DNA of 64,000 bases, taken from assembly GCA_044892525.1 (NCBI GenBank), contig CM097885.1, positions 682,001 to 746,000 on the forward strand, written 5' to 3'. This document shows, in pieces, positions 7,272-62,575 of this stretch. Both the position numbers and the translations under genes were made by a program. Every line of letters starts with the position of its first letter. Positions within the stretch are counted from its first letter, which is position 1. The stretch is from Schmidtea polychroa. Taxonomy: Eukaryota. Below the pieces are notes generated by a model that searched no databases, was not told the DNA's origin, and saw nothing but the letters and a program-made list of their open reading frames with translations.

Positions 7272-7286
7272 AAATTTTTTCTAAAA

Positions 7287-11567: not shown

Positions 11568-11661
11568 AACCAACGATATTTAATTTTTTAATAATAAAAT
11601 GTCGACAATTAATTTAAGCAACTATAGCAACCTGATCTACTTTTTTAAAAATACACCCATT

Positions 11662-12273: not shown

Positions 12274-12281
12274 TTTAATAA

Positions 12282-13292: not shown

Positions 13293-13332
13293 TTATTAAT
13301 AATTTAAAATGGACGGAGTCCCCTGAGAGGAA

Positions 13333-14097: not shown

Positions 14098-14130
14098 TTC
14101 TTTAGTAGTAAATTCATATAGTAAAAATCC

Positions 14131-14595: not shown

Positions 14596-14617
14596 TTTGT
14601 ATTTTAAAACTTCGTAT

Positions 14618-15499: not shown

Positions 15500-15521
15500 T
15501 TTAATGGTATCAAAAATGGTA

Positions 15522-16100: not shown

Positions 16101-16116
16101 TTTATAATAAATAAAA

Positions 16117-16908: not shown

Positions 16909-16923
16909 CTTGTTTTCTATAGT

Positions 16924-18333: not shown

Positions 18334-18371
18334 TTTAAAATGTTAAAATATCAGGGATTATATCAAGAATC

Positions 18372-33705: not shown

Positions 33706-34384
33706 AAAAAAAATGTACTTTTAGACTTAGAATATTTTTGAAAATCTTTTCGACGGGGAAAGGGGGAGGGGGGGGGTACTGTGCTAGCGGTGCCCTGTGC
33801 CAGCGGTGCCCTGTGCCAGCGGTGCCCAATCCATCTACTCTTGTTTACCGAATATAGAAGTTTAAAATATAGAGCATTGATTACTTTAATTTAAAAATGT
33901 ATCCCTTAATTTACATAATTTCCATCTAAAATTATTTCAAAAAAATTTTTTTTCTAAAATTGTCATTGAAAAAAATTTCATAAAAGTTTTCATTTAAAAT
34001 TTTCATTGAAAAATATTTCATAAAAATTTTTTTTAAAAATTATCTTAAAAATTATTCCATAAAAATTTCCATCTAAAATTACTTAAAAAATTATTTCATA
34101 AAAATTTTCATTAAAAAATTTCAATTCTCAAACACCTTCTATTATTTTGTTAATAAATTTAAAATCTTACTTTAATTTGCTTATTACATTACTTATTTAA
34201 AAATTATTACTTTAATTTACTTATTTAAAATATTTGACCATTGATTACTTAATTTAAAAATTTGGACCTTAATTAACTTTAATTTAATTTTTTAGAACCT
34301 TAATTTACTTTAATTGAAAATTTTAGACCTTAATTTTCATGTAAAATTGTCATTGAAAAAATTTTCATTTCTCAGGCGCCGTTT

Positions 34385-35420
34385 AGTAGGTGGTTAGGAG
34401 CCCGCTTCAAATGCAAGCCTTTTTTTTGCTGCAACATTTGATTGCGCAATTGTTGCAACTTGTTTTTTTTTCTATTGAAAATTCTAGAAAAAAAAATAAT
34501 CGTAGCTTATTGTACAACAAAAAAAATGAGTTGCAACAATTGCGTAATCAAAATTTGCAGCAAAAAAAAAGTTGCCGCAGACCCCCTCCCCCCCCTAAAA
34601 TTTTCAATTAAGGTCTAAAATTTTCAATTAAGGTCCAAAATTTTCAATTAAGTAATTAAGGTCCAAATTTTTCAATTACAGTAAATTATGGTTCTAAAAA
34701 ATTAAATTACAGTAAATTATGGTACATATTTTTAAACTTAAGTAAATTAAGGTCTAAAATTTAAAAGTAAAGTAAATTATGGTATATATTTTTAAACTTA
34801 AGTAAATTAAAGTCTAAAATTTCAATTAAGTAAAGTAAGGTCTAAAATTTTCAATTAAGGTCTAAAATTTTCAATTAAAGTTAATTAGGGTCCAAATTTT
34901 GAATTAAAGTTAATTAAGGGTCAAAATTTAAAATTAAAGTAAATTAAGGTTCTAAAAAATTAAATTAAAGTTAATTAAGGTCCAAATTTTTAAATTAAGT
35001 AATCAATGGTCAAATATTTTAAATAAGTAAATTAAAGTAATAATTTTTAAATAAGTAATGTAATAAGCAAATTAAAGTAAGATTTTAAATTTATTAACAA
35101 AATAATAGAAGGTGTTTAAGAATTGAAATTTTTTAATGAAATTTTTTATGAAATAATTTTTTAAGTAATTTTAGATGGAAATTTTTATGGAATAATTTTT
35201 AAGATAATATTTATGAAAATTTTTATGAAATATTTTTCAATGACAATTTTAGAAAAAAAATTTTTTTGAAATAATTTTAGATGGAAATTATTTAAATTAA
35301 GGGATACATTTTTAAATTAAAGTAATCAATGATCTATATTTTAAACTTCTATATTCGGTAAACAAAGACTAAATTAAGTAAATAAAGGGTTAAATTAAAG
35401 AAAATTATGATTATAATTAT
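34385..35420 (+). mobile_element. Probable left terminus/TIR of a pPolB-bearing Maverick-like element (element 3)
   Basis: AGTAGGTGGTTAGGAGCCC resembles the element 2 end AGTAGGTAGATAGTAGCCC; shared GCTGCAAC..TTGATT.CGCAATT motif and TTAAGGTCTAAAATTTTCAA repeats; inverted partial matches at 33840-34375 and 56183-56548; partner end not found. Confidence 0.55.
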
Positions 35421-37595
35421 GATAAGATTTAAAGAATAATTTTTCATTTAACCTTTTTTTTTTAACCTTTTCATTTAACACCATTTTAGAATAATATTTT
35501 CTATCAAAGTTCTTATCTTGATTTATTTAATTTTTAACTTTTTAAAAAAATCATAAGCTAAGAAACCAGTTAACCTTATCAAGAACTTTAAATTTACTTG
35601 ATAATTTACAGAAATAATATACAAAATTTAATTTACAGAAATAATTTACAAAATAATAATACAGAAATTTATGATTAAGTTTGCTTTTATGAACAATCAA
35701 TATATATCATCTCGAGTTAGGTATTTGATAGGTGATATATTTGTAGTAAATAATAAGTTTATTATGTCTTTGTTACATAACTCGACTTTAGCGTCAAAAT
35801 GTGTTTTTAAAATAAATTTTAATTTTAAAATACCGCAATGTAATATATTAATTTTTTCCTACCCTTCCTTGATTTTGATTGGTTAGAATTTGTTCCTATA
35901 AACAATAATAATCTAAAAACAATAATAATCTATAAACAATAATCAATCATTAGTCACATTTAACAAATAATTAACCTTTAAAAATGAATTCTTTAATAGA
36001 AAACGTTATGAATGTTCGAGAAAAAATTCAGGAATTTGGTAAATTTTAATTTATTTATTAATTAATTTATTAATTAATTTAGATAATATTAATGAAGACA
36101 ATTTAAAATCGATTAAAGATTAAAGGAAATTTGAAAAGAAAAAGTAAACATAATTTTTAATTTATTAATTTAATTAATTAATAATTTAGGTAATACGAAT
36201 AAAGAGAAAAAATATGTCAATGTGTCAATAAATCGAAATGAAATTTTACAATGTAAGTATTGATTACTTTTTATAATTTAAAGGAAATTTAATATAATTT
36301 TTTATTTAAGTAAATGTTAATATTTTTAATTTAGTAAATTTTTATTTTTTAGTAAATAAAATTTGTAAAATAATAATAATTTGCAAATTTTTGCGTAAAC
36401 ATTTATTAAAATCTTTCATTTAAATTATATATTTTTATTAAATTTTTATTTTATAGGTATACTTTATCCAAATTATTGTTCATCGAAAAAACATGATAAT
36501 AATTGCCATTCTATAATGGAGAATTATTACACGAAAAAATATTATAATAAAACTTATTTTACGTATGTAAGACTAGTGACCCTGTAACATATAGCGTTTT
36601 TTATAATAAACATAAAAATCATTTAGATAGGTTTAATTTTAAAAAAGATAGTGTTTTTTAAAAGACCCTCAACTATAGAAAAAAATAATACAAATAAAAA
36701 AATTAAATTAGATACTTCTTCTTTTGAATCCTAGGTCGGATTAGATTTTGAATCCCAGGCTGGATTGTCTTTTGTTGAATTCCAGGTCGGATTGTCTTTT
36801 GTTGAATCCAATGATGGATTGGTTGTTGAATCCCAGGTCGGATTGCCTTTTGTTGAATCCCAGGTCGGATTGGTTGTTGAATCCAATGATGGATTATTCA
36901 CTTCCTTTGATTCTTGGGATGGATTAAATATAATACAAATAGGTGGAAATGTATCGACAGTACAAAGAGATTTAAGAGGTACTCATCAGATATTAAGTTT
37001 AAATACTAGCGACTTAAATATAAAAGAAATAATATTTCCTGAACAACCAATAATAAAATTACGAGATATTATTAACGAATTAGGATCCGTCAAAATTCAA
37101 TTCGGAATAACAATCGAATTTTAAAAAGACGGGTAAATAAAGGTTAATAATATCTCCAATTACGCAAAACCTTTAACTGCATCATTTTTTGATCAAGGCA
37201 TTAAGGAACTAAATGAGAAAATAACTAATATTACAGAGCTAGGAAGCAATTGGATTATAAAAAATATAACAGAAATCCACTTCACTATAACAAAAATAAG
37301 TAGGTTAAGTAGATTAAGTGTTATGAGTTTCATTGAAACACCTACTTATCTAAAAAATAAATATTGTTTAATTAATATAAGAAACACTGATGATTCATGT
37401 TTTTTATATAGCATTTTAGCTATTTTAAAATATGATGAAGTTAGTAATTATGCTAGAAATAGGTCATCGAGTTATAATTTATCTGACTTAGTATATAACC
37501 CGTTAGAATTACCTATGAAATTAAAAGACATTAGGAAATTTGAATCTAAAAATTCGGGTTTAAAAGTAGGTAGATAGTAGCCCACCGCAGCAATG

Positions 37596-37940
37596 GTCTA
37601 CACTAGAAAAACGTGGTAATTTAAGGTCTCAGGATATTTTCAATACAAATAGGTGGTCTACACTAAAAAAGCCAAGGATTTTTCAGACAATAGTGAGGTG
37701 AGTCTCCTTGGTCCTGAGAAATAGGTGGTCTACACTAAAAAACGTGGTAATTTAAGGTCTCGGGATATTTTCAATACAAAAAGCTGGTCTACACTAGAAA
37801 AGCATGGTAATTTAAGGTCTCAGGATATTTTCAATACAAAAAGCTGGTCTACACTAAAAAAGCCAAGGATTTTTCAGACTATAGTGAGGTGAGTCTCTTT
37901 GGTCCTGAGAAATAGGTGGTCTACACTAAAAAACGTGGTA
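37596..37940. repeat. Subterminal minisatellite (~50-70 bp units) of element 2, left
   Basis: Repeated GGTCTACACTAAAAAACGTGGTAATTTAAGGTCTCAGGATATTTTCAATACAAA; mirrored and extended at 51424-52275. Confidence 0.9.
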
Positions 37941-38479
37941 AATTTTTCAATTACAGTAAATTATGGTTCTAAAAATTAAAATTAAAGTAAATTATGGTCC
38001 TAAATTTTTCAAATTAAAGTAAATAATGGTTCTAAAAAATTAAATTACAGTAAATAATGGTCCAAAATTTTCCAATACAGTATATTATGGGTCTAAAAAT
38101 TAAATTACAGTAAATAATGGTTCTAAAAATAAAATTGAAGTAAATTTAGGTTCTAAAAATTAAATTACAGTAAATTAAGGTCCAAATTTTAAAATTAAGT
38201 AATCAATGGTAAAAAAAAAATTTTAAATAAGTAAATTAAAGTAATAATTTTTAAATAAGTAAATTAAAGTAATGTAATAAGTAAATTAAAGTAAGATTTT
38301 TAAATTTATTAACAAAAAGTTGAAATAATAGAAGGTGTTTGAGAATTGAAATTTTTTAATGAAAATTTTTATGAAATAATTTTTTAAGTTAATTTTATAA
38401 GTTAATTTTTAATGGAAATTTTTAAGATAATTTTTAATGGAAATTTTTATGAAATATTTTTCAAAGACAAATTTTAATA

Positions 38480-40150
38480 ATAATTCAACAACAAACCACC
38501 TACTAAGTACCAACAACCAGTAACTTACGAACATGTATTACCAACCAGATACCTACAACCAGATACCTACAACTAGTTACTAACAACTAGTTACATGATA
38601 CTAAGTAAATACAACCACTTTATAAGTACTAACAACCAAAAACAAGCAACCAACCAGGTACTAGATACCAAGTACTCACAACCGACAACAACCAAGTACT
38701 AAGCATTATTAACCAACATCAACCAGGTACTAAGCATTAATTACCAACTACTAAGTACCTACAACCAACTAGGTACCAGATACCAAGTACTAACAACCAG
38801 TTACCAACTACTAAGCATTAATTAACTACAACCAGCTAACAGCAACCGACAACAACCAAGTACTAACAACCAAAAACAAGCAACCAACTAGCTACCACCT
38901 ACCAAGTACCTACAACTAGATACTAACAACCAGTTACCAAGTACCTACAACCACCTACCCATTAACTAGCTACCAACTACTAAGTACCAACAACCAACTA
39001 GCTACCAGATACCTACAACTAGATACTAACAACTAGATACCAAGTACCTACAACCACCTATCCATTAACTAGCTACCAAGTACTAACAACTAGGTCTCAA
39101 ACAACTAAATACTAACAACCAGTTACCAACTACTAAGCATTAATTACCTACAACTAGTTACTAACAACTAGATACCAAGTACTTACAACCAACATCAACC
39201 AGGTACTAAGCATCATCAACTAACTACTAAGTACCTACAACCTACAACTAGATACTAACAACCAGTTATCTGATACCAAATACTTACAACTAGATACCAA
39301 GTACTATCAACCAAAAACAACCAACCAACTAGGTACTAGATACCAAGTACTAACAACCAACAACAACCAGGTACTAAGCATTATCAACCAACTAGAGTAC
39401 CTACTAAGTACCTACAACCAACTAACAACCACCTACCAAGTACTAACAACCAGTTACCAACTACTAAGCATTAATTACTAACAACCAGTTACCTGCTATC
39501 AAGTACTTACAACAAGATACCAAGTACTAAGCACTGTCAACTAGATACCAAACACTTAAAACTAGATACCACGTACTAACTAACTCTCAAACAACTAGTT
39601 ACTAACAATCAGTTACCTGCTACCAAGCACTCAACCGTCAACAACCAGTTACTAAGCATTATTAACCAACTACTAAGTACCTACAACCACCTACCCATTA
39701 ACTAGCTACAACCACCTAACAACCAATTACCTTCAACTAGTTACTAACAACTAGTTACCTGATAGCAACCAACTAGGTACCAGATACCAAGTACTAACAA
39801 CCGCCAACAACCAGATACCTACAATTAGTTACTAACAACCAAAAACAACCAACCAACCAGTTACCTGATACCAAGTACTTACAACCAGTTACCTTATACC
39901 AGATACCTACAACTAGTTACTAACAACTAGTTACCTGATAGCAACCAACTAGGTACCAGATACCAAGTACTAACAACCAGTTACCAACTACTAAGCATTA
40001 ATTACCTACAACTAGTTACTAACAACTAGATACCAAGTACATACAACCAACATCAACCAGATACTAAGCATTATCAACCAAGTACTAACAACCAAGTAAC
40101 TTACCAAGTACTAAGCACTGTCAACTAGATACCAAACACTTACAACCAGA
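38480..40150. repeat. A/C-rich mosaic satellite, left arm of element 2
   Basis: Shuffled words CAACTAG, TACCAAGTACTAACAACC, TACTAAGCATTA; mirrored at ~49400-51212. Confidence 0.92.
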
Positions 40151-40568
40151 TGACCACATGAAATTAATGGTTAAATATGAAAATAAGGATTATATTTAGT
40201 TGTTAAGTAAATAATGGTGTAAAATTAAGAAATAAAGAATAATTAGGTAAATTAAAGTAATAATTTTTAAAAAAGTAAATTAAGGTTCAAAATTTAAAAT
40301 TAAGTAATAAATGGTTCAAATTTTAAATTAAAGCTAAAGAAGTAAATTAAAGTAGTAATTTTTAAATAAGTAATGTAATAAGTAAATTAAACTAAGATTT
40401 TTAAATTTATTATCAAAAGATTGAATAACCACCAACTTTTTTGAGAAATGTAATTTTTAATGAAAATTTAAATGGAAATTTTTTTAAAGTTAATTTTAAA
40501 TGTAAAATTTTTTAAGTAAATTTTAATGAAATAATTTTTTAAGGTAATTTTGAATGAAAATTTTAATG

Positions 40569-40626
<58 letters not shown>

Positions 40627-41048
40627 AATAATTCAACAATCAGTTACCAACAATCGGTTACTGATTATTTTTTAACTAGGTGCTAACAAATACTTACAAC
40701 ATGATACCACGTACTAACTAACTCTCAAACAACCAGATACTTACAACTAACTACTAAATATTCTTCACTGTATTTTATGAAATGCTTTTTAAATTAATTT
40801 TTTATCTATCTTCAAAAATATATTTAATTACAATCATTAGAAAAACCTTTTCAAATTTAACAAAAAATGTTGATTTTCATCAATAAACCACAACTCATCA
40901 CCACGTGAAATTCAAAATAATTTAAATTACAATGAAAGACTAATGAATTCTAATTTACAAAACATTCTTCTTTTAAATGATAACTACTGACTTATTATTG
41001 CAAAGTAAAAATCGCATTCAATAAATACTTATTGTTGATCAGTTTTAT

Positions 41049-41153
41049 TATATATACTCTGAGTTTATCCGACAGGATGTTTTGACCCCCTAAGGGTACA
41101 GGTCGTAAGGGTACTGGTCGCAAGGGTACTGGTCGTAAAGGTACTAGTCGTAG
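41049..41153 (-). promoter_or_regulatory. Conserved cassette, copy 10
   Basis: Variant core with four 15-bp GGTCGTAAGGGTACT-type repeats; mirrored at 48621-48728. Confidence 0.5.
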
Positions 41154-44140
41154 GACCATTGGTAACACTTAACCACAACCTACCCATTAACTAGCTACTA
41201 AGTACTAACAACCAGTTACCTGATACCAACTACTAACAACCACCATCAAAACCCATCGAGAAATTAACAAATATCAACCTACAACTTTATAACAACAATC
41301 AATAAACAACACTGTACCAACTACCAAATACAAGATACCAACAACTTAGTACCAACAATCAACTAACAACACATAAAAATAATAGCAATTAAATACAAAA
41401 TACTCTTCATCACATACACTATCTTCTTATCAAAATCTAAAAAGTCAACCAACTACTTACAACCAACAACTATGTACTGACAAATTGATCTTTAAAAGAA
41501 AATACTCTTCACTTGAAAAATTAGATGGAAAATTAATTGAACTCAAGGCATCAATAACTTGATAAAAATTGATTAAATTATTGTAAAAAATTTAAATTAT
41601 TCGAAATAAATATCATAAAAATTTAATTAATGGACAAGAAAAAATTCTAATCATCCAATAAATAAAAAAAAATGCTGATCATTCAAGTTGAATCAACTAA
41701 GATAATAAATTAATAAGATAAGATATAGTAGATAATTGATTTAGATTGAATAAATTAATTGAAATAAAATTAATTTTAAGTATTATTTTTTTTAAGTATT
41801 ATTTTTTAAAAGTAATACATGTACTCAAATCTATTTACTAATTCCTCAATATATTCAAAAAATCAGTATGAATTCATTACAATCATCAATGTCATCAATC
41901 TACAATAAAAATAATTATCATTAAATTCCAAGAGAGACTAGATAACTAATGATAACATCTAATAAACCAGTAAATTCATTTAAATAATTGGTATATTCAA
42001 GCGAATTCTCTAATAAAATCATCTAAAAAGAATCATTTTCCCTGAAATATATCAATATTTAAAGATTGGTATCTTATCGATAAGTACTTGTTAAAGATCA
42101 TATATTCACCTCGAACTAACAAGATTCCTTAAAATCCCTCAAATGACTATATTTCTACCCTTAATTCGTATTATTACAAATATTTCACTAAAATCATCTA
42201 AAAAGCATCAAATTTCCCTGAAATAACTATATCTTTAAAGATTAGTATTTTATCGATAAATATCCTTAAAAGGTTATATATTTACCTCTGACTAATAAGA
42301 TTGCTTAAAATCCCTTTAAATGACTATAATTCTAACTTTAATTCCTATTATCACGAATATTTCCTTATAAAACATGTAAAATCATTAACCCTAAAGAATT
42401 TATAAAATCTAATGACAAAACCGGTTATAATAAAATTTTTGTTAATCACTGTAAATTTTTGTAAATCACTGTACTCGAAATTTAAAATAAATATAACTGA
42501 CTAGGTCCCATTGAAAGATTAAATTTATCCATTCAATAAAATATATTTCTTCAAATGATCATTTTACCGATATTCAACCGATTTAATTACTAATTAAAAT
42601 CAAGATTTCTTCCAATAAAGATCAATTTTATTTAGTTGTCGATGTTTTAAATCAATATTTCTCAACTTTTGTCGTTGTCCGTCTAAATAAAGATAAAAAT
42701 AATTTAAAGTTGATATCAATCCCATTTATCTGTAAAGTTTTCATCGTCAAAACCAAGTAAATCGATCATTATCCTTACGTAATAGAACATTGTTCTAAAA
42801 CATAAATCTAAATTAATATACAATGAATTAATCACAACCTAATAAAACGATATAATTATTATTGATACATAACTGACTAATTGACATTTCCCTTAAAACA
42901 ATGATATTTTACCAACATCACCATTAAAAAAATCATATAATCCCATCTTAACCCATGTCTCATTAAATTTAACCGACTATATTCCCATCTTAACCCATCC
43001 TTCATTAAATTCAATCGACCATATCTTCCTTACAATGATATATTCCCACCTTATCTGATCTCTCATTAAATCTAACCGACTATATCCCCTCAAAAGATCA
43101 TATATTCCCATCTTAAATTTAACCAACAATATCCCATCTTAACCGATCTCTCACCAAATATTTCTACCCCTTTAAACATCTAACCGAATATATCCTTCAA
43201 TTCTACCCACTTGAATCCTCCTTTAATTCAATTCAGTCTTAAAATCTTTAAAGAACTTCAAAAATATGACTTAATTGTTATAAACACCAAATATTCTTCC
43301 ATTGAAATAATTTAGTAGCTATGTAGTAAGAGTTCACTAAAAGATCAAAAATCAATATTTTCTACAAATATTTACCATCAAATACTGGAGATGATATATA
43401 TTGATTGATCATAATTCTTCATCGATTCAGCCAATCATTTTCAAGCAATAACAGCAAACTAAATTTCTTTATATCCTACAATAATTATCACGTAAATTTA
43501 AAGTCCCTGATAAAGTTAACTGGTTTCTTAGCTTATGTTTTTAAAGATCATCAATGTGTAAATATTCTTAGAAAATTATTGAAAAATTATTTATTAAAAT
43601 ATATTACAAAGTTATCATCAGAAATTTATTCTATCACTTAATTATTAACCTAATTGTCAATGAAATTAATTTTTATTTAAAAACTATTCAATAAAATACA
43701 ACTAATTATCAAGAAATTAATTAAATTTATCAATTAAATTTATCACCATTAAAACTTTTAATCAGTCAACATGAAATTCTTAGAAAATTATTCAATATCC
43801 TCATCAAAATTTATCCTACCACTTGATTATTGTACAAACTTTAATTATTAACCTCATTAAAAATAAATTTTTATTTAAAATTAAAAAACAAGTCAATAAA
43901 AATACATTCAATTATCAAGAAATTAATTAAATTTACTTTAGAATTAGCATTAAATTACAGATATTCACAAAAATTACGGAAATTCATGAAAATAATGGAA
44001 ATCCACAAAAATGATAGAAATTCATAAAAACGATAAAAATTCATAAAAATTATAGAAATTTACTTGAATAAAACCATCAACTCTAAAAATTATCAATGCC
44101 TTAAACATCAAATTTGCCTAAATTCAAATAAAAACATTAA

Positions 44141-44280
44141 ATACCTTTACGACTAATACCCTTGCGACATGTTGAATGTGAGTAGTACCCTTGTGAGCAA
44201 TACCCATAGGGGGACAGAATATTTTGTCGGATAAACTCAGAGTATATATTAATTAACTAATTTTTCATTGAATCAGTCAA
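44141..44280 (+). promoter_or_regulatory. Conserved cassette, copy 11, with TATA and TCAGT 30 nt downstream
   Basis: TATATA at 44243, TCAGT at 44273; partial mirror at 45590-45636. Confidence 0.55.
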
Positions 44281-44750
44281 ATTATCATTAATTTTGATAA
44301 AAATTCTAAAGTGGTAAGCAATGAAAGGAGAAATATTCTTTAAACTTTGATAAAATTAACAATGAAGGTGGTAAGAATCTTCATTAAAGTGAGGAAATTA
44401 CTCGATGATAAATTTAAATGGGTGAAAATAATTGGTAGAATAATTCATTAATGGATCATTGAATGGGCATAGATAAGATGAAGGTTGATAAGAATGGATG
44501 TATTGCAACTATTTTCTAAAAATTAACACTTTAATAAAAAAAACTTTTAAAACAAATATTTGTGGGGATGTTTTAAGTGAATAATTAATCAAAATCGGCG
44601 GAATATAAGTAGAAAATCGGGGTGGGGGTTATAGGCGAATAATTAATGGAAATTCGAGGGGATATAAGTGAATAATTAATGGAGAATCGGGGGGAATATA
44701 GGGATTAAATAGTAGAGAATAATAGTGAATATAAGTGAGGAGGATATATA

Positions 44751-45590
44751 ATTTAAGCTAGTTTATAACATAACAAGCCGTGACTAGTTTATTACATAAC
44801 AACCCGCGACTATTTTATTACATAACAAGCTGTGAATGGTATTTTATTGAGAATTATTGATTAGGTCTTTTTTTTTTTAATTTTTGAATAGGTACTTTAA
44901 TACCTTAATAATTTAAATGTTTTGATTTACACTAAATAATTTCTAAATCAATTACCCTTTTTAATCAAAATAAGATAACTATTCAAATAAATGACTTATA
45001 AAATACAATTAAAATTAAATTCTTTACACTAAATTTAAAAATATAAGTTTTATGAGTAAATGTTAATAAGAAATTAGTGTATTATCAGTTATAGACTTTT
45101 AAAACTTATTGATTAGATATTAAAAGTTACTCTTTTTTTTTCATAAGGTATTTTAATATTGTATTCTATTTATTATTAAATTTACTATTTTACACTAAAA
45201 TATTTAGAAAACAATCATCATAATATTAAATATGAAACTTCAATCAAAATAAGCTAATACTCGAATACTTACTTTGATCTTATAAAATACAATCAAAATT
45301 AAATACTTCACAAATTTTAAGTAAAGTTTTTTAAATTCTCAAATAAATGTTAACAAGATATTAATTTAATAATCATTATATACTTTTTAAACTTATTATT
45401 GGAATAAAACAATAGAATGATATTGAAAATATATACAATTTTAAAATATAATTAAAATTAAATTACATACTTTAAAAATTTAGTAAAATGTTGGTAAAAT
45501 ACCATTCACAGCTTGTTATGCAATAAAATAGTCGCGGGTTGTTATGTAATAAACTAGTCACGGCTTGTTATGTAATAAACTAGCTTAAAT
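44751..45590. mobile_element. MITE-like element with ~95-bp TIRs built from three ~26-bp repeats
   Basis: ATTTAAGCTAGTTTATAACATAACAAGCCGTGACTAG... versus ...CTAGTCACGGCTTGTTATGTAATAAACTAGCTTAAAT; AT-rich non-coding interior. Confidence 0.8.
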
Positions 45591-48500
45591 ACTACTCACA
45601 TTCAACATGTCGCAAGGGTATTAGTCGTAAAGGTATTTAATGTTTTTATTTGAATTTAGGCAAATTTGATGTTTAAGGCATTGATAATTTTTAGAGTTGA
45701 TGGTTTTATTCAAGTAAATTTCTATAATTTTTATGAATTTTTATCGTTTTTATGAATTTCTATCATTTTTGTGGATTTCCATTATTTTCATGAATTTCCG
45801 TAATTTTTGTGAATATCTGTAATTTAATGCTAATTCTAAGGTAAATTTAATTAATTTCTTGATAATTGAATGTATTTTTATTGACTTGTTTTTTAATTTT
45901 AAATAAAAATTTATTTTTAATGAGGTTAATAATTAAAGTTTGTACAATAATCAAGTGGTAGGATAAATTTTGATGAGGATATTGAATAATTTTCTAAGAA
46001 TTTCATGTTGACTGATTAAAGGTTTTAATGGTGATAAATTTAATTGATAAATTTAATTAATTTCTTGATAATTAGTTGTATTTTATTGAATAGTTTTTAA
46101 ATAAAAATTAATTTCATTGACAATTAGGTTAATAATTAAGTGATAGAATAAATTTCTGATGATAACTTTGTAATATATTTGAATAAATAATTTTTCAATA
46201 ATTTTCTAAGAATATTTACACATTGATGATCTTTAAAAACATAAGCTAAGAAACCAGTTAACTTTATCAGGGACTTTAAATTTACGTGATAATTATTGTA
46301 GGATATAAAGAAATTTAGTTTGCTGTTATTGCTTGAAAATGATTGGCTGAATCGATGAAGAATTATGATCAATCAATATATATCATCTCCAGTATTTGAT
46401 GGTAAATATTTGTAGAAAATATTGATTTTTGATCTTTTAGTGAACTCTTACTACATAGCTACTAAATTATTTCAATGGAAGAATATTTGGTGTTTATAAC
46501 AATTAAGTCATATTTTTGAAGTTCTTTAAAGATTTTAAGACTGAATTGAATTAAAGGAGGATTCAAGTGGGTAGAATTGAAGGATATATTCGGTTAGATG
46601 TTTAAAGGGGTAGAAATATTTGGTGAGAGATCGGTTAAGATGGGATATTGTTGGTTAAATTTAAGATGGGAATATATGATCTTTTGAGGGGATATAGTCG
46701 GTTAGATTTAATGAGAGATCAGATAAGGTGGGAATATCTCATTGTAAGGAAGATATGGTCGATTGAATTTAATGAAGGATGGGTTAAGATGGGAATATAG
46801 TCGGTTAAATTTAATGAGACATGGGTTAAGATGGGATTATATGATTTTTTTAATGGTGATGTTGGTAAAATATCATTGTTTTAAGGGAAATGTCAATTAG
46901 TCAGTTATGTATCAATAATAATTATATCGTTTTATTAGGTTGTGATTAATTCATTGTATATTAATTTAGATTTATGTTTTAGAACAATGTTCTATTACGT
47001 AAGGATAATGATCGATTTACTTGGTTTTGACGATGAAAACTTTACAGATAAATGGGATTGATATCAACTTTAAATTATTTTTATCTTTATTTAGACGGAC
47101 AACGACAAAAGTTGAGAAATATTGATTTAAAACATCGACAACTAAATAAAATTGATCTTTATTGGAAGAAATCTTGATTTTAATTAGTAATTAAATCGGT
47201 TGAATATCGGTAAAATGATCATTTGAAGAAATATATTTTATTGAATGGATAAATTTAATCTTTCAATGGGACCTAGTCAGTTATATTTATTTTAAATTTC
47301 GAGTACAGTGATTTACAAAAATTTACAGTGATTAACAAAAATTTTATTATAACCGGTTTTGTCATTAGATTTTATAAATTCTTTAGGGTTAATGATTTTA
47401 CATGTTTTATAAGGAAATATTCGTGATAATAGGAATTAAAGTTAGAATTATAGTCATTTAAAGGGATTTTAAGCAATCTTATTAGTCAGAGGTAAATATA
47501 TAACCTTTTAAGGATATTTATCGATAAAATACTAATCTTTAAAGATATAGTTATTTCAGGGAAATTTGATGCTTTTTAGATGATTTTAGTGAAATATTTG
47601 TAATAATACGAATTAAGGGTAGAAATATAGTCATTTGAGGGATTTTAAGGAATCTTGTTAGTTCGAGGTGAATATATGATCTTTAACAAGTACTTATCGA
47701 TAAGATACCAATCTTTAAATATTGATATATTTCAGGGAAAATGATTCTTTTTAGATGATTTTATTAGAGAATTCGCTTGAATATACCAATTATTTAAATG
47801 AATTTACTGGTTTATTAGATGTTATCATTAGTTATCTAGTCTCTCTTGGAATTTAATGATAATTATTTTTATTGTAGATTGATGACATTGATGATTGTAA
47901 TGAATTCATACTGATTTTTTGAATATATTGAGGAATTAGTAAATAGATTTGAGTACATGTATTACTTTTAAAAAATAATACTTAAAAAAAATAATACTTA
48001 AAATTAATTTTATTTCAATTAATTTATTCAATCTAAATCAATTATCTACTATATCTTATCTTATTAATTTATTATCTTAGTTGATTCAACTTGAATGATC
48101 AGCATTTTTTTTTATTTATTGGATGATTAGAATTTTTTCTTGTCCATTAATTAAATTTTTATGATATTTATTTCGAATAATTTAAATTTTTTACAATAAT
48201 TTAATCAATTTTTATCAAGTTATTGATGCCTTGAGTTCAATTAATTTTCCATCTAATTTTTCAAGTGAAGAGTATTTTCTTTTAAAGATCAATTTGTCAG
48301 TACATAGTTGTTGGTTGTAAGTAGTTGGTTGACTTTTTAGATTTTGATAAGAAGATAGTGTATGTGATGAAGACTATTTTGTATTTAATTGCTATTATTT
48401 TTATATGTTGTTAGTTGATTGTTGGTACTAAGTTGTTGGTATCTTGTATATGGTAGTTGGTACAGTGTTGTTTATTGATTGTTGTTATATAGTTGTAGGT

Positions 48501-48620
48501 TGATATTTGTTAATTTCTCGATGGGTTTTGATGGTGGTTGTTAGTAGTTGGTATCAGGTAACTGGTTGTTAGTACTTAGTAGCTAGTTAATGGGTAGGTT
48601 GTGGTTAAGTGTTACCAATG

Positions 48621-48728
48621 GTCCTACGACTAGTACCTTTACGACCAGTACCCTTGCGACCAGTACCCTTACGACCTGTACCCTTAGGGGGTCAAAACAT
48701 CCTGTCGGATAAACTCAGAGTATATATA
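48621..48728 (+). promoter_or_regulatory. Conserved cassette, mirror of copy 10
   Basis: Reverse complement of 41049-41153. Confidence 0.5.
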
Positions 48729-49150
48729 ATAAAACTGATCAACAATAAGTATTTATTGAATGCGATTTTTACTTTGCAATAATAAGTCAGTAGTTATCAT
48801 TTAAAAGAAGAATGTTTTGTAAATTAGAATTCATTAGTCTTTCATTGTAATTTAAATTATTTTGAATTTCACGTGGTGATGAGTTGTGGTTTATTGATGA
48901 AAATCAACATTTTTTGTTAAATTTGAAAAGGTTTTTCTAATGATTGTAATTAAATATATTTTTGAAGATAGATAAAAAATTAATTTAAAAAGCATTTCAT
49001 AAAATACAGTGAAGAATATTTAGTAGTTAGTTGTAAGTATCTGGTTGTTTGAGAGTTAGTTAGTACGTGGTATCATGTTGTAAGTATTTGTTAGCACCTA
49101 GTTAAAAAATAATCAGTAACCGATTGTTGGTAACTGATTGTTGAATTATT

Positions 49151-49184
<34 letters not shown>

Positions 49185-49399
49185 CATTAAAATTTTCATT
49201 CAAAATTACCTTAAAAAATTATTTCATTAAAATTTACTTAAAAAATTTTACATTTAAAATTAACTTAAAAAAAATTTCCATTTAAATTTTCATTAAAAAT
49301 TACATTTCTCAAAAAAGTTGGTGGTTATTCAATCTTTTGATAATAAATTTAAAAATCTTAGTTTAATTTACTTATTACATTACTTATTTAAAAATTATG

Positions 49400-51212
49400 T
49401 TGGTTGTATGTACTTGGTATCTAGTTGTTAGTAACTAGTTGTAGGTAATTAATGCTTAGTAGTTGGTAACTGGTTGTTAGTACTTGGTATCTGGTACCTA
49501 GTTGGTTGCTATCAGGTAACTAGTTGTTAGTAACTAGTTGTAGGTATCTGGTATAAGGTAACTGGTTGTAAGTACTTGGTATCAGGTAACTGGTTGGTTG
49601 GTTGTTTTTGGTTGTTAGTAACTAATTGTAGGTATCTGGTTGTTGGCGGTTGTTAGTACTTGGTATCTGGTACCTAGTTGGTTGCTATCAGGTAACTAGT
49701 TGTTAGTAACTAGTTGTAGGTATCTGGTATAAGGTAACTGGTTGTTAGTACTTGGTATCAGGTAACTGGTTGGTTGGTTGTTTTTGGTTGTTAGTAACTA
49801 ATTGTAGGTATCTGGTTGTTGGCGGTTGTTAGTACTTGGTATCTGGTACCTAGTTGGTTGCTATCAGGTAACTAGTTGTTAGTAACTAGTTGAAGGTAAT
49901 TGGTTGTTAGGTGGTTGTAGCTAGTTAATGGGTAGGTGGTTGTAGGTACTTAGTAGTTGGTTAATAATGCTTAGTAACTGGTTGTTGACGGTTGAGTGCT
50001 TGGTAGCAGGTAACTGATTGTTAGTAACTAGTTGTTTGAGAGTTAGTTAGTACGTGGTATCTAGTTGTAAGTGTTTGGTATCTAGTTGACAGTGCTTAGT
50101 ACTTGGTATCTTGTTGTAAGTACTTGATAGCAGGTAACTGGTTGTTAGTAATTAATGCTTAGTAGTTGGTAACTGGTTGTTAGTACTTGGTAGGTGGTTG
50201 TTAGTTGGTTGTAGGTACTTAGTAGGTACTCTAGTTGGTTGATAATGCTTAGTACCTGGTTGTTGTTGGTTGTTAGTACTTGGTATCTAGTACCTAGTTG
50301 GTTGGTTGTTTTTGGTTGATAGTACTTGGTATCTAGTTGTAAGTATTTGGTATCAGATAACTGGTTGTTAGTATCTAGTTGTAGGTTGTAGGTACTTAGT
50401 AGTTAGTTGATGATGCTTAGTACCTGGTTGATGTTGGTTGTAAGTACTTGGTATCTAGTACCTAGTTGGTTGGTTGTTAGTAACTAGTTGTAGGTTGTAG
50501 GTACTTAGTAGTTAGTTGATGATGCTTAGTACCTGGTTGATGTTGGTTGTAAGTACTTGGTATCTAGTTGTTAGTAACTAGTTGTAGGTAATTAATGCTT
50601 AGTAGTTGGTAACTGGTTGTGAGTATTTAGTTGTTTGAGACCTAGTTGTTAGTACTTGGTAGCTAGTTAATGGATAGGTGGTTGTAGGTACTTGGTATCT
50701 AGTTGTTAGTATCTAGTTGTAGGTATCTGGTAGCTAGTTGGTTGTTGGTACTTAGTAGTTGGTAGCTAGTTAATGGGTAGGTGGTTGTAGGTACTTGGTA
50801 ACTGGTTGTTAGTATCTAGTTGTAGGTACTTGGTAGGTGGTAGCTAGTTGGTTGCTTGTTTTTGGTTGTTAGTACTTGGTTGTTGTCGGTTGCTGTTAGC
50901 TGGTTGTAGTTAATTAATGCTTAGTAGTTGGTAACTGGTTGTTAGTACTTGGTATCTGGTACCTAGTTGGTTGTAGGTACTTAGTAGTTGGTAATTAATG
51001 CTTAGTACCTGGTTGATGTTGGTTAATAATGCTTAGTACTTGGTTGTTGTCGGTTGTGAGTACTTGGTATCTAGTACCTGGTTGGTTGCTTGTTTTTGGT
51101 TGTTAGTACTTGTTAAGTGGTTGTATTTACTTAGTATCATGTAACTAGTTGTTAGTAACTAGTTGTAGGTATCTGGTTGTAGGTATCTGGTTGGTAATAC
51201 ATGTTCGTAAGA
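49400..51212. repeat. G/T-rich mosaic satellite, right arm of element 2
   Basis: Reverse complement of 38480-40150 with internal duplications. Confidence 0.92.
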
Positions 51213-51423
51213 ACCTAAATTTACTTTAATTTAATTTTTAGAACCATTATTTACTGTAATTTAATTTTTAGACCCATAATTTACTGTATTGGAAAAATTT
51301 GGACCATTATTTACTGTAAATTAATTTTTTAGAACCATTATTTACTTTAATTTGAAAAATTTAGGACCATAATTTACTTTAATTTTAATTTTTAGAACCA
51401 TAATTTACTGTAATTGAAAAATT

Positions 51424-52275
51424 TACCACGTTTTTTAGTGTAGACCACCTATTTCTCAGGACCAAAGAGACTCACCTCACTATAGTCTGAAAAATCCTTG
51501 GCTTTTTTAGTGTAGACCAGCTTTTTGTATTGAAAATATCCTGAGACCTTAAATTACCATGCTTTTCTAGTGTAGACCAGCTTTTTGTATTGAAAATATC
51601 CCGAGACCTTAAATTACCACGTTTTTTAGTGTAGACCACCTATTTCTCAGGACCAAGGAGACTCACCTCACTATAGTCTGAAAAATCCTTGGCTTTTTTA
51701 GTGTAGACCACCTATTTGTATTGAAAATATCCTGAGACCTTAAATTACCATGCTTTTTTAGTGGTAGTCGGATTTTTGTATTGAAAATATCCTGAGACCT
51801 TAAATTACCACGTTTTTCTAGTGTAGACCACCTATTTCTCAGGACCAAGGAGACTCACCTCACTATAGTCTGAAAAATCCTTGGCTTTTTTATTGATAGT
51901 AGGATTTTTGTATAGAAAAAAATTTTTTGTATTGAAAATCCCAGGACCATCGAGACCCCTTCACTATAGCGTGAATAATCCATGCATTTTTATTGGTAGT
52001 CGGATTTTTGTATAGAAAATTTTTTTTGTATTGAAAATCCCAGGACCATCGTTTTTGTATAGAAAAATTTTTTTTGTATTGAAAATCCCAGGACCATCGA
52101 GACCTCCTCACTATAGTCTGAAAATTCCATGCTTTTTTAGTGAGACCGCCTTTTTGTATTGAAAAAATTTTATTTGTATTGAAAATCCCAGGACCATCGT
52201 TTTTGTATTGAAAAAATTTTTTTGTATTGAAAATCCCAGGACCATCGAGACCCCCTCACTATAGTCTGAAAAATT
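51424..52275. repeat. Subterminal minisatellite of element 2, right
   Basis: Repeated TTTTTGTATTGAAAATATCCTGAGACC / CCCAGGACCATCG units. Confidence 0.9.
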
Positions 52276-52454
52276 GCGTAATCAAAAGTTGCAGCAAAAA
52301 AATTACGGCACCAGAACCCCCCCCCCCGGGGGGGTCATTGCTGCGGTGGGCTACTATCTACCTACTTTTAATAATTAATGTTTTTTCATATGATAATAGC
52401 AAACAATTAACTGATAATTATGTATTAAAACATCCACATTTAGATATTATACAT

Positions 52455-54737
52455 CAGGGGTGCCCACTAATTTTTCTAGGAGTGCTACATTCACATCCAA
52501 AATGTGTATGCGATCTACTTTTTTAATACTTACATAATATTTACCTACAATGCAATAAATTCATCACAATAGAACAAATATATGTCAAAATATGGAAAAT
52601 TAAACTATGTAACTATTTATTATAAAAAAATGTAACTTAGGAAATCAAATTTAATGAAAATTATTGTTATATAGAACTTTTCGATGTTGATGCTCTACAT
52701 TGGGTTGAATCCACTAGATTTTTGTAGTTTTTGATATAAGTGCTAAGACAACTTCTTAGGCTGGATTCCAAATGGTCATCTGTTAATGTTAATAATGAGT
52801 TAATAATTTTCATATGTGAAAATGCAGACTCACATAAATAAGTTGATCCAAAAAATGATACTAAATTTTCGAAGCATTTTTTCAAGTTTGAATATTTATC
52901 CTCTGATAGATATTTCCATACATTTGGTTCGGAAGATCTTGATTTAATGAAGATATCATTTTGAAGTGTGATTATTTCCATTTCAAGTATAGGGATATCC
53001 ATTTTAAACAAAGTTGAGATTGAATCTGCAACAATTTCTGGCTTTATTATTGGATTAAACGGAAAGGACATAAATGCAGCCACAATTTCAAGTTTCTTGA
53101 AGTCTTGAAAACGTCTCTCGAACTCTAAAACCAAAATTTTGATCTGTTCCGCATATCTCGTAATATTAAAGTTGACATTTTCAGATTCTTTTAATTGTGA
53201 CAACATATTTGGAAAATAACTTAAATTTTTGTCTTTTATTTTGATAATATGTAAATGAAGCTTTTGTATAAATGCAATGATTGAACTTATCATATCGAAT
53301 ATCAATTTATCCTTACGATGTAAGTCGAGATTTAATTCATTCAGAATTGCAGTAATATCTACTAAAAATGCCAAATCCAAGAGCGAAACATCATCTTCCA
53401 ATTGCTTGAACTCATCACCTCTTGCGGCAAGGAACAACTTAATCTCAGAAAGAAAATCTCTAAATCTTTGTAAGAATTTTCCTCTACTTAGCCACCTTAC
53501 ATCTGAATGCATCAGTAATTCAGCAGGATCTTCGCTATTACTTTCTTCAATTTGTAATTTGAAAAGTCGTCTCTGAAGACTTCTTGCACGAATCGAGTTA
53601 GCAATTTTGAATGTTATTTCCATAATATCTCTCATATTCAGAATTTTAGCACACAAGGCTTGTTGATGAATAATACAGTGGTAGGAAAGAAAATCTGGGA
53701 ATTCACAATCATTCCTACAATATGCTATAAATCCGTTGTGACGCCCTGTCATAGCTGGTGCGCCATCTGTTGTTATTGATAAAAGCTTACAAATTTGGAG
53801 CTGAATGCTGTTGGCATAAGCTTTAAAATTCTGAAATATATCCTCACCACGAGTTTTACTTTTGAGTGGTATAATTGTTAATAATTCTTCCTTCGTAGAA
53901 AAATCTTTAAAGACCATTCGAATAAAAATTATAAGCTGCGAAATATCAGCCGCATTAGTTGATTCGTCTGCTTGCAATGAAAATGCAGTACAATTTCCTA
54001 TGTCTAACATTAACTGATATTTTAAATTGGTACTTATTTCTTGGACTCTCCGTGTAACTGTATTACGGGACAATTGCATATCAGTAATAGCAGAAATTAT
54101 ATCTGATTTATTTTTAAAATCACAAAATAATGATTATGCCGCTTCTAAAAATGCTTCTTTTACAATTACTCCATCACTAAAAGATTTCTTATTTTTTGCC
54201 AGAATGTAGCTTACTCGGAAAGATGCAGCTGTAGCTGACTTTGATTTGGATGCTAGCTTCGTAAAAAATGACTGTTGAAAAAAAATGCATGTTTTCAGTT
54301 CCATGATTTTAGACTTGCGTAGTTCACTGTCAAGTGGATAATCATCTGCAAAATTCTTATGAATTGTCTTGAAATGCCTTTCCAAATTCCCTCTTTTTGG
54401 TAATGAAATAGTAGCTTTACAAATTAAGCAACAACATTTACCTTTAATCATTACAAAAAAGTACTCCTTCTCCATTTCTTCGCTATAATGATAAGTCTTG
54501 GCTTTTCTATTTAGCATTTTTTATTTAGCATTTTTTTATTTAGCATTTTTAAACAAAATTAATTTAACAAAAAAGCTTAAGAAAATTTTTCACTTTGTTA
54601 ACCAAAAATTTAAGCATAAAACAGAAATTTTATATAAAATCTAAATTTATATAAAAAAAATTTTTTTTATGAAGATCTACTAAAAAATCCTTCGCGATCT
54701 ACCGGATAGATAGCGATCGAACTTATGGGCACACCTG
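52455..54737 (-). mobile_element. hAT DNA transposon, Buster/Charlie/SPIN group, 2283 bp
   Basis: TIRs CAGGGGTGCCCA / TGGGCACACCTG; 8-bp TSD TTATACAT at 52447-52454 and 54738-54745. Confidence 0.95.
52667..54517 (-). pseudogene. GTF2IRD2/Buster-like hAT transposase with one in-frame stop
   Basis: CLIC..NLERHF zinc finger, FSLQADES, TTDGAPAM, HCIIH, VRWLSRG, STYLCESAFS; the two ORFs are in the same frame separated by TAA at 54136-54134. Confidence 0.92.
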
Positions 54738-58487: not shown

Positions 58488-61400
58488 TCAGTCTTCATCA
58501 ATATCAATATCATCTTTTCCAACATCTTCTCCAAAATTTAATTGACTTAATATTACATACCCATATGATAAACTAGTATTTTTCCCCACCCAAACCCTTT
58601 TGTCATCTTTGTTAGTTAGATATTTAATAAAATTAGTCCTCATCAGACAAAATAACGTCATCGATATCGATATCATATTCTCCAAAATCTTCTCCAACAT
58701 CTTCAATAAATTATTCCTCATCTTCTCCAACATTTTCATCAAATTCATCTCCAACAATTTCTCCAACATTTTCTCCAACAATTTCTCCAACATTTTCTCC
58801 AATATTTAATTCACTTAATCTTACATGCCTATATGCAAGACTAGTATTTTTCCCCACCCAAACCCTTTTGTCATCTTTGTTAGTTAGTGCTATTTTATTA
58901 TTTTTAATTGTAAAAATTTGATGATTTTTGTTTGTTAATTTTGTTTGAGGAATCGAAAAAATTTGATTAGTTTTATAACAATCCAGGTATGACTGATGTT
59001 TTATGTCACTACCTTTCAATGTTACACCTTTAGCCTTTTTTGTTTCCTCATCACCCAACAAGCTATAACACTTGGGTCTAAGAAAAACCCATTCCTTATA
59101 TTTAAGACCTTTATTCTCGTCTTTGAACTTTCCAATGACAGAATCAAGGTTCTTACTATATAAGGAATGACAACTATTGTAATCTAAGTATGTAATAAAT
59201 TATCTCGAATCATTGCAGGTAAAAGAACCTCAAGTTTACAGTTAATAACTTCGAGGAAAAAAGAGTCTGTATCACCTGCAACGATATTAATTTTATTAAC
59301 AAATTGATAAAAATCAATGAATCTTAAGCTTATTTTGCCTAAATGCGCAATCAAAGAAATAAATTTTTCAGTCGTGATTGGGATGCAACCTAAAGTCCAA
59401 TTTTTAAATTTGTTTAAACCATATTTAAGAATATGGTGCATATCGTATCTCTTCAAGTTGTGAAATACGATAGGCAAAATTTTATTTATTTTCCTATTTA
59501 TGTTGCATGTGCTACAAGCTGCACCCAAGTATTTCCCTGTAAAATGATCGTGATCTCTAACAGGATCGACGATACATTTCAAACAAAGGTAACAAACAGA
59601 TGCACTAACAAATTGACGTTGTTCAATTTTTGTTAATTTCATCACAGGTTTTATAATAAAAAGGAAGAACCTTATATAATGCTATATCCTCTATAGCACT
59701 TAAAAAACTCTCGACGCAATCTAAACCTATGAACTGTTGATAAGATTTAGATCCATCAAAGTTATTTACAAGTAAAAGACCAGAAGATATTGGCATGTGT
59801 CGTTTGAAATGAACATTATTGGAAGGTAAAATAGCCTCAAAATCGGCATAAACTACAAAAGGAGGAGTTACCAGTCAGTAAACTGCAATAATTTATTTTG
59901 AGGGAAAGTGTAAAGAGTTGTTCCTAATTGATTACGTTTACATAATATTTCATGTTTTTCCAGTGCGTGTTTATACCTAAACCCATTCAAACACCGATGG
60001 CACCATAATGATTGTATGCGTGTAGGACAACTAGTGGTGATACCACAATTCAGAAACCTATTTAAATTACTTATAGCAACGGAATGGAAATTGTTTCCTT
60101 TATTTAATAGTAGTAAATTAATTACAGTTCCATTTAAAACTTTGGAACGATGTATAATATCTAAATGTGGATGTTTTAATACATAATTATCAGTTAATTG
60201 TTTGCTATTATCATATGAAAAAACATTAATTATTAAACCCGAATTTTTAGATTCAAATTTCCTAATGTCTTTTAATTTCATAGGTAATTCTAACGGGTCG
60301 TATACTAAGTCAGATAAATTATAACTCGATGTCCTATTTCTAGCATAACTACTAACTTCATCATATTTTAAAATAGCTAAAATGCTATATAAAAAACATG
60401 AATCATCAGTGTTTTTTATATTAATTAAACGATATTTATTTTTTAGATAAGTAGGTGTTTCAATGAAACTCCTACCACTTAATCTACTTAACATACTTAT
60501 TTTTGTTATGGTGAAATGTATTTCAGTAATATTTTTTATATTCCAACTGCTTCCTAACTCAGTAATATTAGTAATTTTCTCATTTAATTCTTTAATGCCT
60601 TCATCAAAAATTGATGCAGTTAAAGGCTTTGCATAATTTGAGATATTTCTAACCTTTATTTACCCGTCTTTTTCAAATTCGATTGTTATTCCGAATTGAA
60701 TTTTGACGGAGCCTAATTCGTTAATAATATCTCGTAATTTTATTATTAGTTGTTCAGGAAATATTATTTCTTTTATATTTAAGTCGCTTGTATTTAAGCC
60801 TAATATTTGATGGGTACCTCTTAAATTTCTTTGTACTGTCGGTACATTTCCACCTATTTGTATTATATTTAATCCATCCCAAGAATCAAAGGAAGTGAAT
60901 AATCCATCATTGGATTCAACAACCAATCCGACCTGGGATTCAACAAAAGGCAATCCGACCTGGGATTCAACAAAAGACAATCCGTCCTGGGATTCAACAA
61001 CCAATCCATCATTGGATTCAACAAAAGACAATCCGACCTGGAATTCAACAAAAGACAATCCAGCCTGGGATTCAAAATCTAATCCGACCTGGGATTCAAA
61101 AGAAGAAGTATCTAATTTAATTTTTTAATTGTATTATTTTTTTCTATAGTTGAGGGTCTTTTAAAAACACTATCTTTTTTAAAATTAAACCTATCTAAAT
61201 GATTTTTATGTTTATTATAAAAAACGCTATATGTTACAGGGTCACTAGTCTTACATACGGGACATATAAAATAAGTTTTATTATAATATTTTTTCGTGTA
61301 ATAATTCTCCATTATAGAATGGCAATTATTATCATGTTCTTTCGATGAACAATAATTTGGATAAAGTATACCTATAAAATAAAAATTTAATAAAAATATA

Positions 61401-61844
61401 TAATTTAAATGAAAGATTTTATTAAATGTTTACGCAAAAATTTGCAAATTATTATTATTTTACAAATTTTATTTACTAAAAAATAAAAGTTTACTAAATT
61501 AAAAATATTAACATTTACTTAAATAAAAAATTATATTAAATTTCCTTTAAATTATAAAAAGTAATCAATACTTACATTGTAAATTTTCATTTCGATTTAT
61601 TGACACATTGACATATTTTTTCTCTTTATTCGTATTACCTAAATTATTAATTAATTAAATAAATAAATTAAAAATTATGTTTACTTTTTCTTTTCAAATT
61701 TCCTTTAATCTTTAATCGATTTTAAATTGTCTTCATTAATATTATCTAAATTAATTAATAAAATAATTAATAAATAAATTAAATTTTACCAAATTCCTGA
61801 ATTTTTTCTCGAACATTCATAACGTTTTCTATTAAAGAATTCAT
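58488..61844 (-). pseudogene. Intron-containing pPolB gene (family 2, copy B), internally deleted
   Basis: Inverted near-copy of copy A without the two insertions; exonuclease region joined directly to GDTDS near 59295; C-terminal DDKRVW segment duplicated with acidic repeats. Confidence 0.9.
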
Positions 61845-62575
61845 TTTTAAAGGTTAATTATTTGTTAAATGTGACTAATGATTGATTATTGTTTATAGGA
61901 ACAAATTCTAACCAATCAAAATCAAGGAAGGGTAGGAAAAAATTAATATATTACATTGCGGTATTTTAAAATTAAAATTTATTTTAAAAACACATTTTGA
62001 CGCTTAAATCGAGTTATATAACAAAGACATAATAAAATTATTATTTACTACAAATATTTCACCTATCAAATACTTAACTAGAGATGATATATATTGATTG
62101 TTCATAAAAGCAAACTTAATCATAAATTTCTGTATATTATTTTGTAAATTATTTCTGTAAATTAAATTTTGTATATTATTTCTGTAAATTATCAAGTAAA
62201 TTTAAAGTTCTTGATAAGGTTAACTGGTTTCTTAGCTTATGTTTTTTTAAAAAAGTTCATCAATGTGTAAATATTCTTAGAAATATATTGAAAAAAATTA
62301 TTTAGTCAAATGCATTACAAAGTCATCTAAAATTAAACCAATTACTTAATTATTAACCTAGCAGTCATTAAAAAATTAATTTTTATTTAAAATTTAACAA
62401 ATTATCAAGAAATTCAATTAAAATCGTCATTAAAACTTTAAATTTTTAAATAAATCTACATGAAATTCTTAGAAAATATATGAAAAAAAATATTATTACA
62501 AAGTCATATCCAATCACGTGATTATTAACCTAACTGTCATTAAAAATAATTTTTATTTAAAATTAAAAAACCAAT

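Follow-up and report, generated by a model that had tools for sequence, protein, structure and literature searches.

A gene-less 14.8-kb palindrome in Schmidtea polychroa as a probable foldback derivative of Polinton/Maverick elements

What system inserts and copies a palindrome of almost 15 kb that carries no gene? The question was raised by a 64,000-nucleotide stretch of the Schmidtea polychroa genome (contig CM097885.1, positions 682,001 to 746,000; hereafter the window), which has ~25% G+C and contains nested mobile elements throughout. The palindrome occupies 37565-52366 (14,802 bp), lies inside a broken second copy of a protein-primed polymerase gene (pPolB-2), and has the inverted ends AGTAGGTAGATAGTAGCCCACCGCAGCAATG at 37565(+) and 52366(-). 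Judged from its sequence, it is probably a gene-less non-autonomous foldback derivative of Polinton/Maverick elements, moved by the enzymes of a helper.

Insertion site and anatomy of the palindrome

The insertion site comprised the following features.

37559..37564, + strand: left target-site copy, TTTAAA; its last base is not that of the empty site; in a Kolobok-like reading of the junction, TTAA at 37560-37563
52367..52372, + strand: right target-site copy, TTTAAT, as in the empty site; in the same alternative reading, TTAA at 52368-52371
36735..37558, + strand: host, the part of the broken pPolB-2 before the insertion; it resumes at 52367-52454 and then, after a hAT insertion, at 54738-56190
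60149..62257, - strand: inverted paralogue of the host region with the empty site, a single TTTAAT at 60237-60232

The host sequence (35536-37559 plus 52367-52455) was 94% identical to the inverted paralogue (62257-60149). Because the paralogue contains a single TTTAAT and its pPolB reading frame maps onto both flanks of the palindrome, the palindrome was inserted precisely and as one unit, as the sequence-only reading of the window had proposed. That reading had also described two ways of dividing the junction, and both stand: the ends are either AGTAG with a 6-bp target-site duplication (TSD) in which five of the six bases match (TTTAAA/TTTAAT), or AAGTAG with a perfect TTAA duplication.

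From left to right, the palindrome is composed as follows.

37565..37595, + strand: left terminus (AGTAG-N11-CCC, 31 bp), mirrored perfectly by 52336-52366; joins the subterminal repeats directly, 507 bp of the right arm being absent
37596..38523, + strand: subterminal tandem arrays of 60/191-bp, 30-bp and 13-bp units; 38153-38523 (371 bp) has no right-arm mirror
38524..40593, + strand: C/A-rich degenerate minisatellite, strand-skewed, with 13/28-bp units and (AAT)n
40594..44187, + strand: inner arm, 3,594 bp, non-coding, 8 mismatches to its mirror 49183-45590
44156..44243, - strand: ~90-bp 'GCAAGGGTA' motif; further copies at 41055-41126(+), 45590-45621(+, cut) and 48651-48722(-)
44188..44751, + strand: left-arm stretch without right-arm mirror, 564 bp
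44752..44846, + strand: innermost arm segment, three 26-bp units; mirror 45495-45589
44847..45494, no strand: unpaired loop, 648 bp, very A+T-rich, without an open reading frame (ORF)
45495..52366, - strand: right arm, 6,872 bp; a fuller subterminal region is kept at 51829-52335

The left arm measured 7,282 bp. The arms had been put at ~6.6 kb around a 1.4-kb spacer, and these figures were corrected by the inverted pair 44752-44846/45495-45589 (2 mismatches in 95 bp), whose right half directly adjoins what had been taken as the beginning of the right arm. The loop is therefore 648 bp, and the supposed spacer included 564 bp whose mirror was lost. Nine collinear arm blocks amounted to 6,021 bp and differed by 22 mismatches (6 transitions and 16 transversions), an identity of 99.63%. 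The label 'near-perfect' is right for these blocks but not for the whole element, which was base-paired over 81% of its length and contained eight arm-specific indels of 24-564 bp. The right arm alone carried 507, 60, 109 and 176 bp, the 109- and 176-bp stretches being additional units in its counterpart of 38524-40593; the left arm alone carried 371, ~302 (40054-40355), 24 and 564 bp. At the junctions of the large unique arm deletions, 1-2-nt microhomologies were found. The outer 3 kb of each arm consisted of tandem arrays. The right terminal 127 nt folded no better than shuffled sequences (z -1.5). The segment 44752-45589 was also considered as a separate miniature inverted-repeat element flanked by TTAA. 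From this one copy, an innermost arm segment with a loop seems the likelier reading, since its junction shows a 1-2-nt microhomology like the other arm-specific deletions.

The palindrome had been said to contain no intact ORF, which agreed with every search made. Its longest stop-free frame was 121 aa and lay within tandem repeats, whereas 30 block shuffles gave a median of 109 and a maximum of 181. No match was obtained in the palindrome by tblastn with 21 window proteins or with the best 120 of 581 integrase homologues, and Pfam recovered no family from the six frames of 40650-45592. Lacking matches to pPolB and the RVE integrase, the palindrome is therefore not an autonomous Polinton member; capsid, packaging ATPase and protease genes were also absent by tblastn with the 21 window proteins and by Pfam in 40650-45592. 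An Rfam search of 33800-53000 gave one match (E 0.49), which was taken as chance.

Ends, target duplication and rival explanations

Three neighbouring elements bear on the origin of the palindrome.

~6299-20655: gene-complete Polinton, ~14.36 kb, with pPolB, rve integrase, A32 ATPase and double jelly-roll capsid (Pfam scan covering 26 window ORFs)
2654-33839: element 1, gene-less and mirrored
34385 onwards: element 3, which carries the broken pPolB-2; a second end was not found within the window

Mavericks are marked by AG/AGT end motifs and 6-bp TSDs (PMC8097293, available text), and the AGTAG ends have an AG/AGT-type start. The extended motif AGTAG-N11-CCC, with CCC at positions 17-19, occurred at 5 of the 83 AGTAG sites on both window strands, against ~0.2 expected from base composition for a motif that was picked after the ends had been seen. 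The five sites were both palindrome ends, the end of element 3, the right end of the gene-complete Polinton and an internal copy of that end. Element 1 has ACC at the same positions. It is flanked by a perfect 6-bp TSD (CTTGTT) with AGTAG ends and no A outside AGTAG; in both elements 1 and 3 the base before AGTAG is T and not A.

Sequence shared with element 3 extends inward from the ends. The subterminal arrays of the palindrome and element 3 were 81% identical over 554 bp (37942-38474 in the left arm), within a similarity that was patchy at 72-81%. The region kept at 51829-52335 contains a G/C tract and a T-tract-GCTGCAA-TTTGATTACGCAATT box, both common to element 3. The region upstream of pPolB-2 matched an inner arm module (43348-43888) over 577 bp at 73% identity, and inner-arm modules within 42523-44307 were ~70% alike to element 1. 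The module found upstream of pPolB-2 (43348-43888 vs 62034-62570) points outward in the palindrome arms and inward relative to the end of element 3.

The flanks of other family copies were assessed by mapping contigs of four public runs (X1, X2, X13 and X14, the last two from one study) on 52196-52455; the summed contig depth is a crude measure and does not give copy number. Across 52366, the depth bins were 1716k, 1417k and 879k, then 314k, 486k and 645k in X13, and 147k, 124k and 82k, then 24.9k, 28.7k and 29.5k in X14. Just past 52366, the excess over the host edge was -13k in X13 and -3k in X14, whereas a shared TTTAA would have given ~+189k and ~+22k. Thus in two of the four runs the family depth stopped at the AGTAG end and not after TTAA, the other two being non-discriminating, which suggests that family copies have variable flanks. 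Among the 32 pieces listed (of more than 47,000), two reached the end; they were 87-88% alike, both stopped at 52367 and neither continued with TTAA; in one of them, 59 unlike letters followed. In X1, a contig with a depth of 4550 enters 52368 from host-like sequence, and related host copies are therefore uninterrupted at that site.

The summed depth of the terminus reached tens of thousands, compared with 11-60 for typical single listed contigs in X1 and X2, which points to a palindrome family of many copies. The subterminal unit 52196-52275 had a summed depth in the millions in all four runs, ~16 to 120 times that of the terminus, and may also exist as a satellite. Sampled words of 40650-45700 were present at 85% in one run, which may be the source of the assembly, and at 45-48% in two runs of a second study. 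Since the loop region makes up ~28% of 40650-45700, the figure of 85% means that part of it was present.

Several observations weigh against a Polinton origin. The arms showed no BLAST similarity to the terminal inverted repeat (TIR) of the gene-complete Polinton beyond the short end motif. The 6-bp TSD contains a mismatch, which at the divergence of the arms would be expected in ~2% of cases, or more if the arms were homogenised, whereas the TTAA reading of the junction is perfect. In X1 and X2, the excess past the end was ~4.3k against 6.0k and 3.9k expected for TTAA, a linear host edge being assumed, and both listed end-reaching pieces carry T at 52367. An intact helper with an AGTAGG end was not found in the window or in viral or metagenome contigs.

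Some of these points are what would be expected of a non-autonomous Kolobok-type foldback, with AAGTAG..CTACTT ends, a TTAA target and a Kolobok transposase. TTAA duplication and RR..YY ends are typical of Kolobok (PMC9587614, in part), the junction is then free of mismatches, and X1, X2 and the T at 52367 are compatible with a shared TTAA. The RR..YY pattern is uninformative, because AG..CT fits it as well as AA..TT does. Such an origin is nevertheless unlikely. In elements 1 and 3, T rather than A stands before the homologous ends, and the duplication around element 1 is a 6-bp sequence other than TTAA; in X13 and X14 the depth falls away at 52366, and TTAA follows in neither of the end-reaching pieces. 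No Kolobok transposase was detected by Pfam in the palindrome or among the 26 window ORFs, where DDE enzymes were represented solely by the Polinton integrase and hAT-type pieces, and the nonautonomous KolobokP families described in the available part of PMC9587614 measure 1.7-3.3 kb. The preference for Polinton over Kolobok expressed in the sequence-only reading was thus supported by the AGTAG ends, the TSD of element 1, the depth in X13 and X14, the shared end motif and the subterminal sequence common to the palindrome and the pPolB-bearing element 3. It is also improbable that another cut-and-paste transposase moved a classical foldback of the FB/Tetris type, whose Polinton-like end was borrowed or coincidental and whose arms grew by ectopic conversion. 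Foldback elements are built of long modular TIRs with internal tandem repeats around a non-coding middle, and this structure arises independently from different lineages (PMC4079207, in the text available). However, the same source gives TSDs of 8-10 bp and TIRs of at most 1.7 kb for Tetris, against 6 (or 4) bp and 7-kb arms here; the empty site permits a duplication of no more than 6 bp, and the end motif is common to the gene-complete Polinton.

Two further explanations concern the palindromic form itself. A Polinton integrase might have inserted a non-palindromic form that was made palindromic in place by inverted duplication or arm conversion. The arms are 99.6% alike, compared with 94-95% for the two host copies, and the left end is locally rearranged; but on either side the outer end and the flank are intact and run collinear to the empty site, and element 1 has the same mirrored layout with a TSD of its own, so that this course of events has little probability. 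Long palindromes are a known long-read artefact. No listed contig piece spans the right junction, which neither supports nor refutes an artefact of assembly or read fold-back. An artefact is very improbable in view of the eight arm-specific indels, among which are several whole repeat units, the 648-bp loop, the target duplication, the host sequence that differs on each side and stands in the correct order, and the words of 40650-45700 present in runs of two studies. The arm-specific indels and matching flanks had already been advanced against an artefact, and that argument held.

Helper lineage, neighbouring elements and proposed mechanism

If the palindrome is a foldback Polinton derivative, its helper probably belonged to the lineage of pPolB-2 and element 3 rather than to that of the gene-complete Polinton at 6.3-20.7 kb. 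By its sequence, the palindrome is an old, established family built of modules rather than a helper genome recently folded back, because it has no BLAST similarity to the TIR of the gene-complete Polinton and no coding remnant. It had been interpreted as a snap-back, defective-interfering-like derivative in which one end is present twice. Its snap-back shape was confirmed, and is more complete than had been stated, but a derivation of both termini from one end of a helper found no support, given the same lack of TIR similarity and coding remnant.

The following course may be proposed. Most likely, the retroviral-type integrase of a helper Polinton recognises the AGTAG ends and inserts the palindrome with a 6-bp duplication, and the protein-primed polymerase of the helper copies it from either end. 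Each displaced strand would fold into a duplex of ~7 kb with a 0.65-kb loop, which would restore a double-stranded end and favour ever longer arms. Repair or template switching at the hairpin might then produce the arm-specific deletions with 1-2-nt microhomology as well as the T-to-A change by which the left copy of the target departs from the empty site. Template switching at the base of a hairpin yields changes of this kind. By this single T-to-A change, the perfect inverted repeat reaches out to 37560/52371, 5 bp into the flanks, and the TTAA appearance would thus result from it. The left-end rearrangement is located 31 bp inward of the terminus.

Element 1 is an older gene-less mirrored element of 16,316 bp net, made of nested inverted shells, with outer arms ~85% alike and modules related to the palindrome. 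The ~90-bp motif that ends in GCAAGGGTA occurred in 13 window copies (4492-48722), nine in element 1 and four in the palindrome, with none in the gene-complete Polinton; in element 1, four forward copies lie in the left half and five reverse copies in the right half. It is a candidate cis-element. Element 3 may be an older foldback that retained pieces of the polymerase. The lengths of the neighbours had been used to suggest a size constraint, and they were confirmed (element 1 at 16,316 bp net, the Polinton at ~14.36 kb); three lengths of 14.4, 14.8 and 16.3 kb in one window give a weak indication of such a constraint. It is possible, if rather doubtful, that these elements represent stable gene-less polintovirus satellites, replicated by the helper polymerase, packaged by the helper capsid near helper length and integrated by the helper integrase. 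If so, they would be heritable, integrated defective-interfering genomes and would hold Polintons in check in animal germ lines, through competition or hairpin RNA.

Other features were observed in the surrounding sequence. pPolB-2 consists of two broken convergent copies that are 94% alike, with a different part gone from each (35536-62570). By-eye reading of its 5' part (35984-36260) suggested tiny exons split by ~45-nt GT..AG introns. A hAT-type element with an 8-bp TTATACAT duplication (52455-54737) lies 88 bp from the right end of the palindrome, and a second hAT piece begins near 62566. A tandem duplicate at 1-1181 and 1450-2594 (92% alike) belongs to a third pPolB lineage, of which it contains the 3' end together with the region downstream. 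In place of a 6-bp TSD, the gene-complete Polinton has on both sides a 512-bp sequence duplicated at 100% identity (5786-6297/20656-21167), and its left end is without the AGTAG terminus. This points to one-ended insertion accompanied by repair, or else to a join made in assembly. A second copy of its terminal sequence (20394-20423), ~260 bp inside the right end and in opposite orientation, forms a small inverted unit with the true right end. Its integrase (16924-18333) has an N-terminal phospholipase A2-like domain, which was also present in most homologues among the matches listed (120 of 581). In viral contigs, pPolB-2 and the Polinton integrase had no confirmed relatives (0 of 4 and 0 of 19 candidate stretches, respectively), and exact searches with the terminus and with the subterminal unit found no locus in viral or metagenome contigs.

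Relation to known systems

Polinton derivatives that depend on a helper are already on record, if in some cases just as names, and the foldback transposons form a long-established structural class. In the literature searched, no description of gene-less Polinton derivatives palindromic over their whole length was found; subscription journals and Repbase, which lay outside the search, may hold such elements. Polinton particles in animals are reported as unobserved in the available text of PMC8097293, and extrachromosomal replication and particle formation have so far been inferred from gene content. A high-copy gene-less parasite would retain only the cis needs of its helper. The conserved parts of the family, namely the AGTAG-N11-CCC end, the subterminal box and the total length, therefore point to the origin, to the site used by the integrase and to a packaging limit, if there is one. 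Since nothing in a system that works by transposase alone would cause a 15-kb palindrome to be retained, the palindrome is also an indirect sign of strand-displacement replication. Gene-based surveys of Polintons miss gene-less elements of this kind.

The letter 'N' in Polinton names stands for non-autonomous. Among named examples, Polinton-1N1_DR is known as a name only (PMC9341505, in part). Polinton-N1A_NV keeps a capsid gene (PMC11296320, in the part available) and Tlr1 keeps genes (PMC5499653, likewise), unlike the palindrome. The idea of a helper-dependent derivative is common to them and to the palindrome; a whole-element palindrome was not found described in the available parts of these sources.

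With the vertebrate Polinton/Maverick set, so far as it is given in the accessible text of PMC8097293, the palindrome shares an AG-start end, TIRs, a probable 6-bp TSD and a length within the range of 12.7-24.6 kb. Vertebrate Mavericks average 16.9 +/- 1.7 kb, a size constraint has been proposed for them, and their AG/AGT end repeats have been linked to jumping-back priming (PMC8097293). The palindrome differs in being gene-less, in having arms of ~7 kb where the TIRs measure 46-1,447 bp, in ending with AGTAGG rather than (AGT)2, and in the single mismatch of its TSD. TTAA duplication and RR..YY ends, as given for Kolobok in part of PMC9587614, fit the palindrome junction, whereas the homologous ends nearby are not at TTAA, two of the four runs argue against a constant target, and no transposase is present.

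The snapback genomes of adeno-associated virus (AAV), as described in the available part of PMC8235507, are also self-complementary, have the same terminus twice and, in the asymmetric type, an unpaired loop; AAV is likewise helper-dependent. They are transient, collinear with the helper, made afresh and packaged as single-stranded DNA, whereas the palindrome is integrated and belongs to a diverged high-copy family with no coding remnant and no identified collinear helper. In build, the palindrome resembles the foldback transposons FB, Galileo and Tetris, which, in the text available from PMC4079207, have long modular arms, internal tandem arrays, a non-coding middle and, frequently, arm asymmetry. 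Compared with these, the arms of the palindrome are ~4 times those of Tetris, its TSD is 6 bp instead of 8-10 bp, and its ends are Polinton-like rather than Mutator- or P-like.

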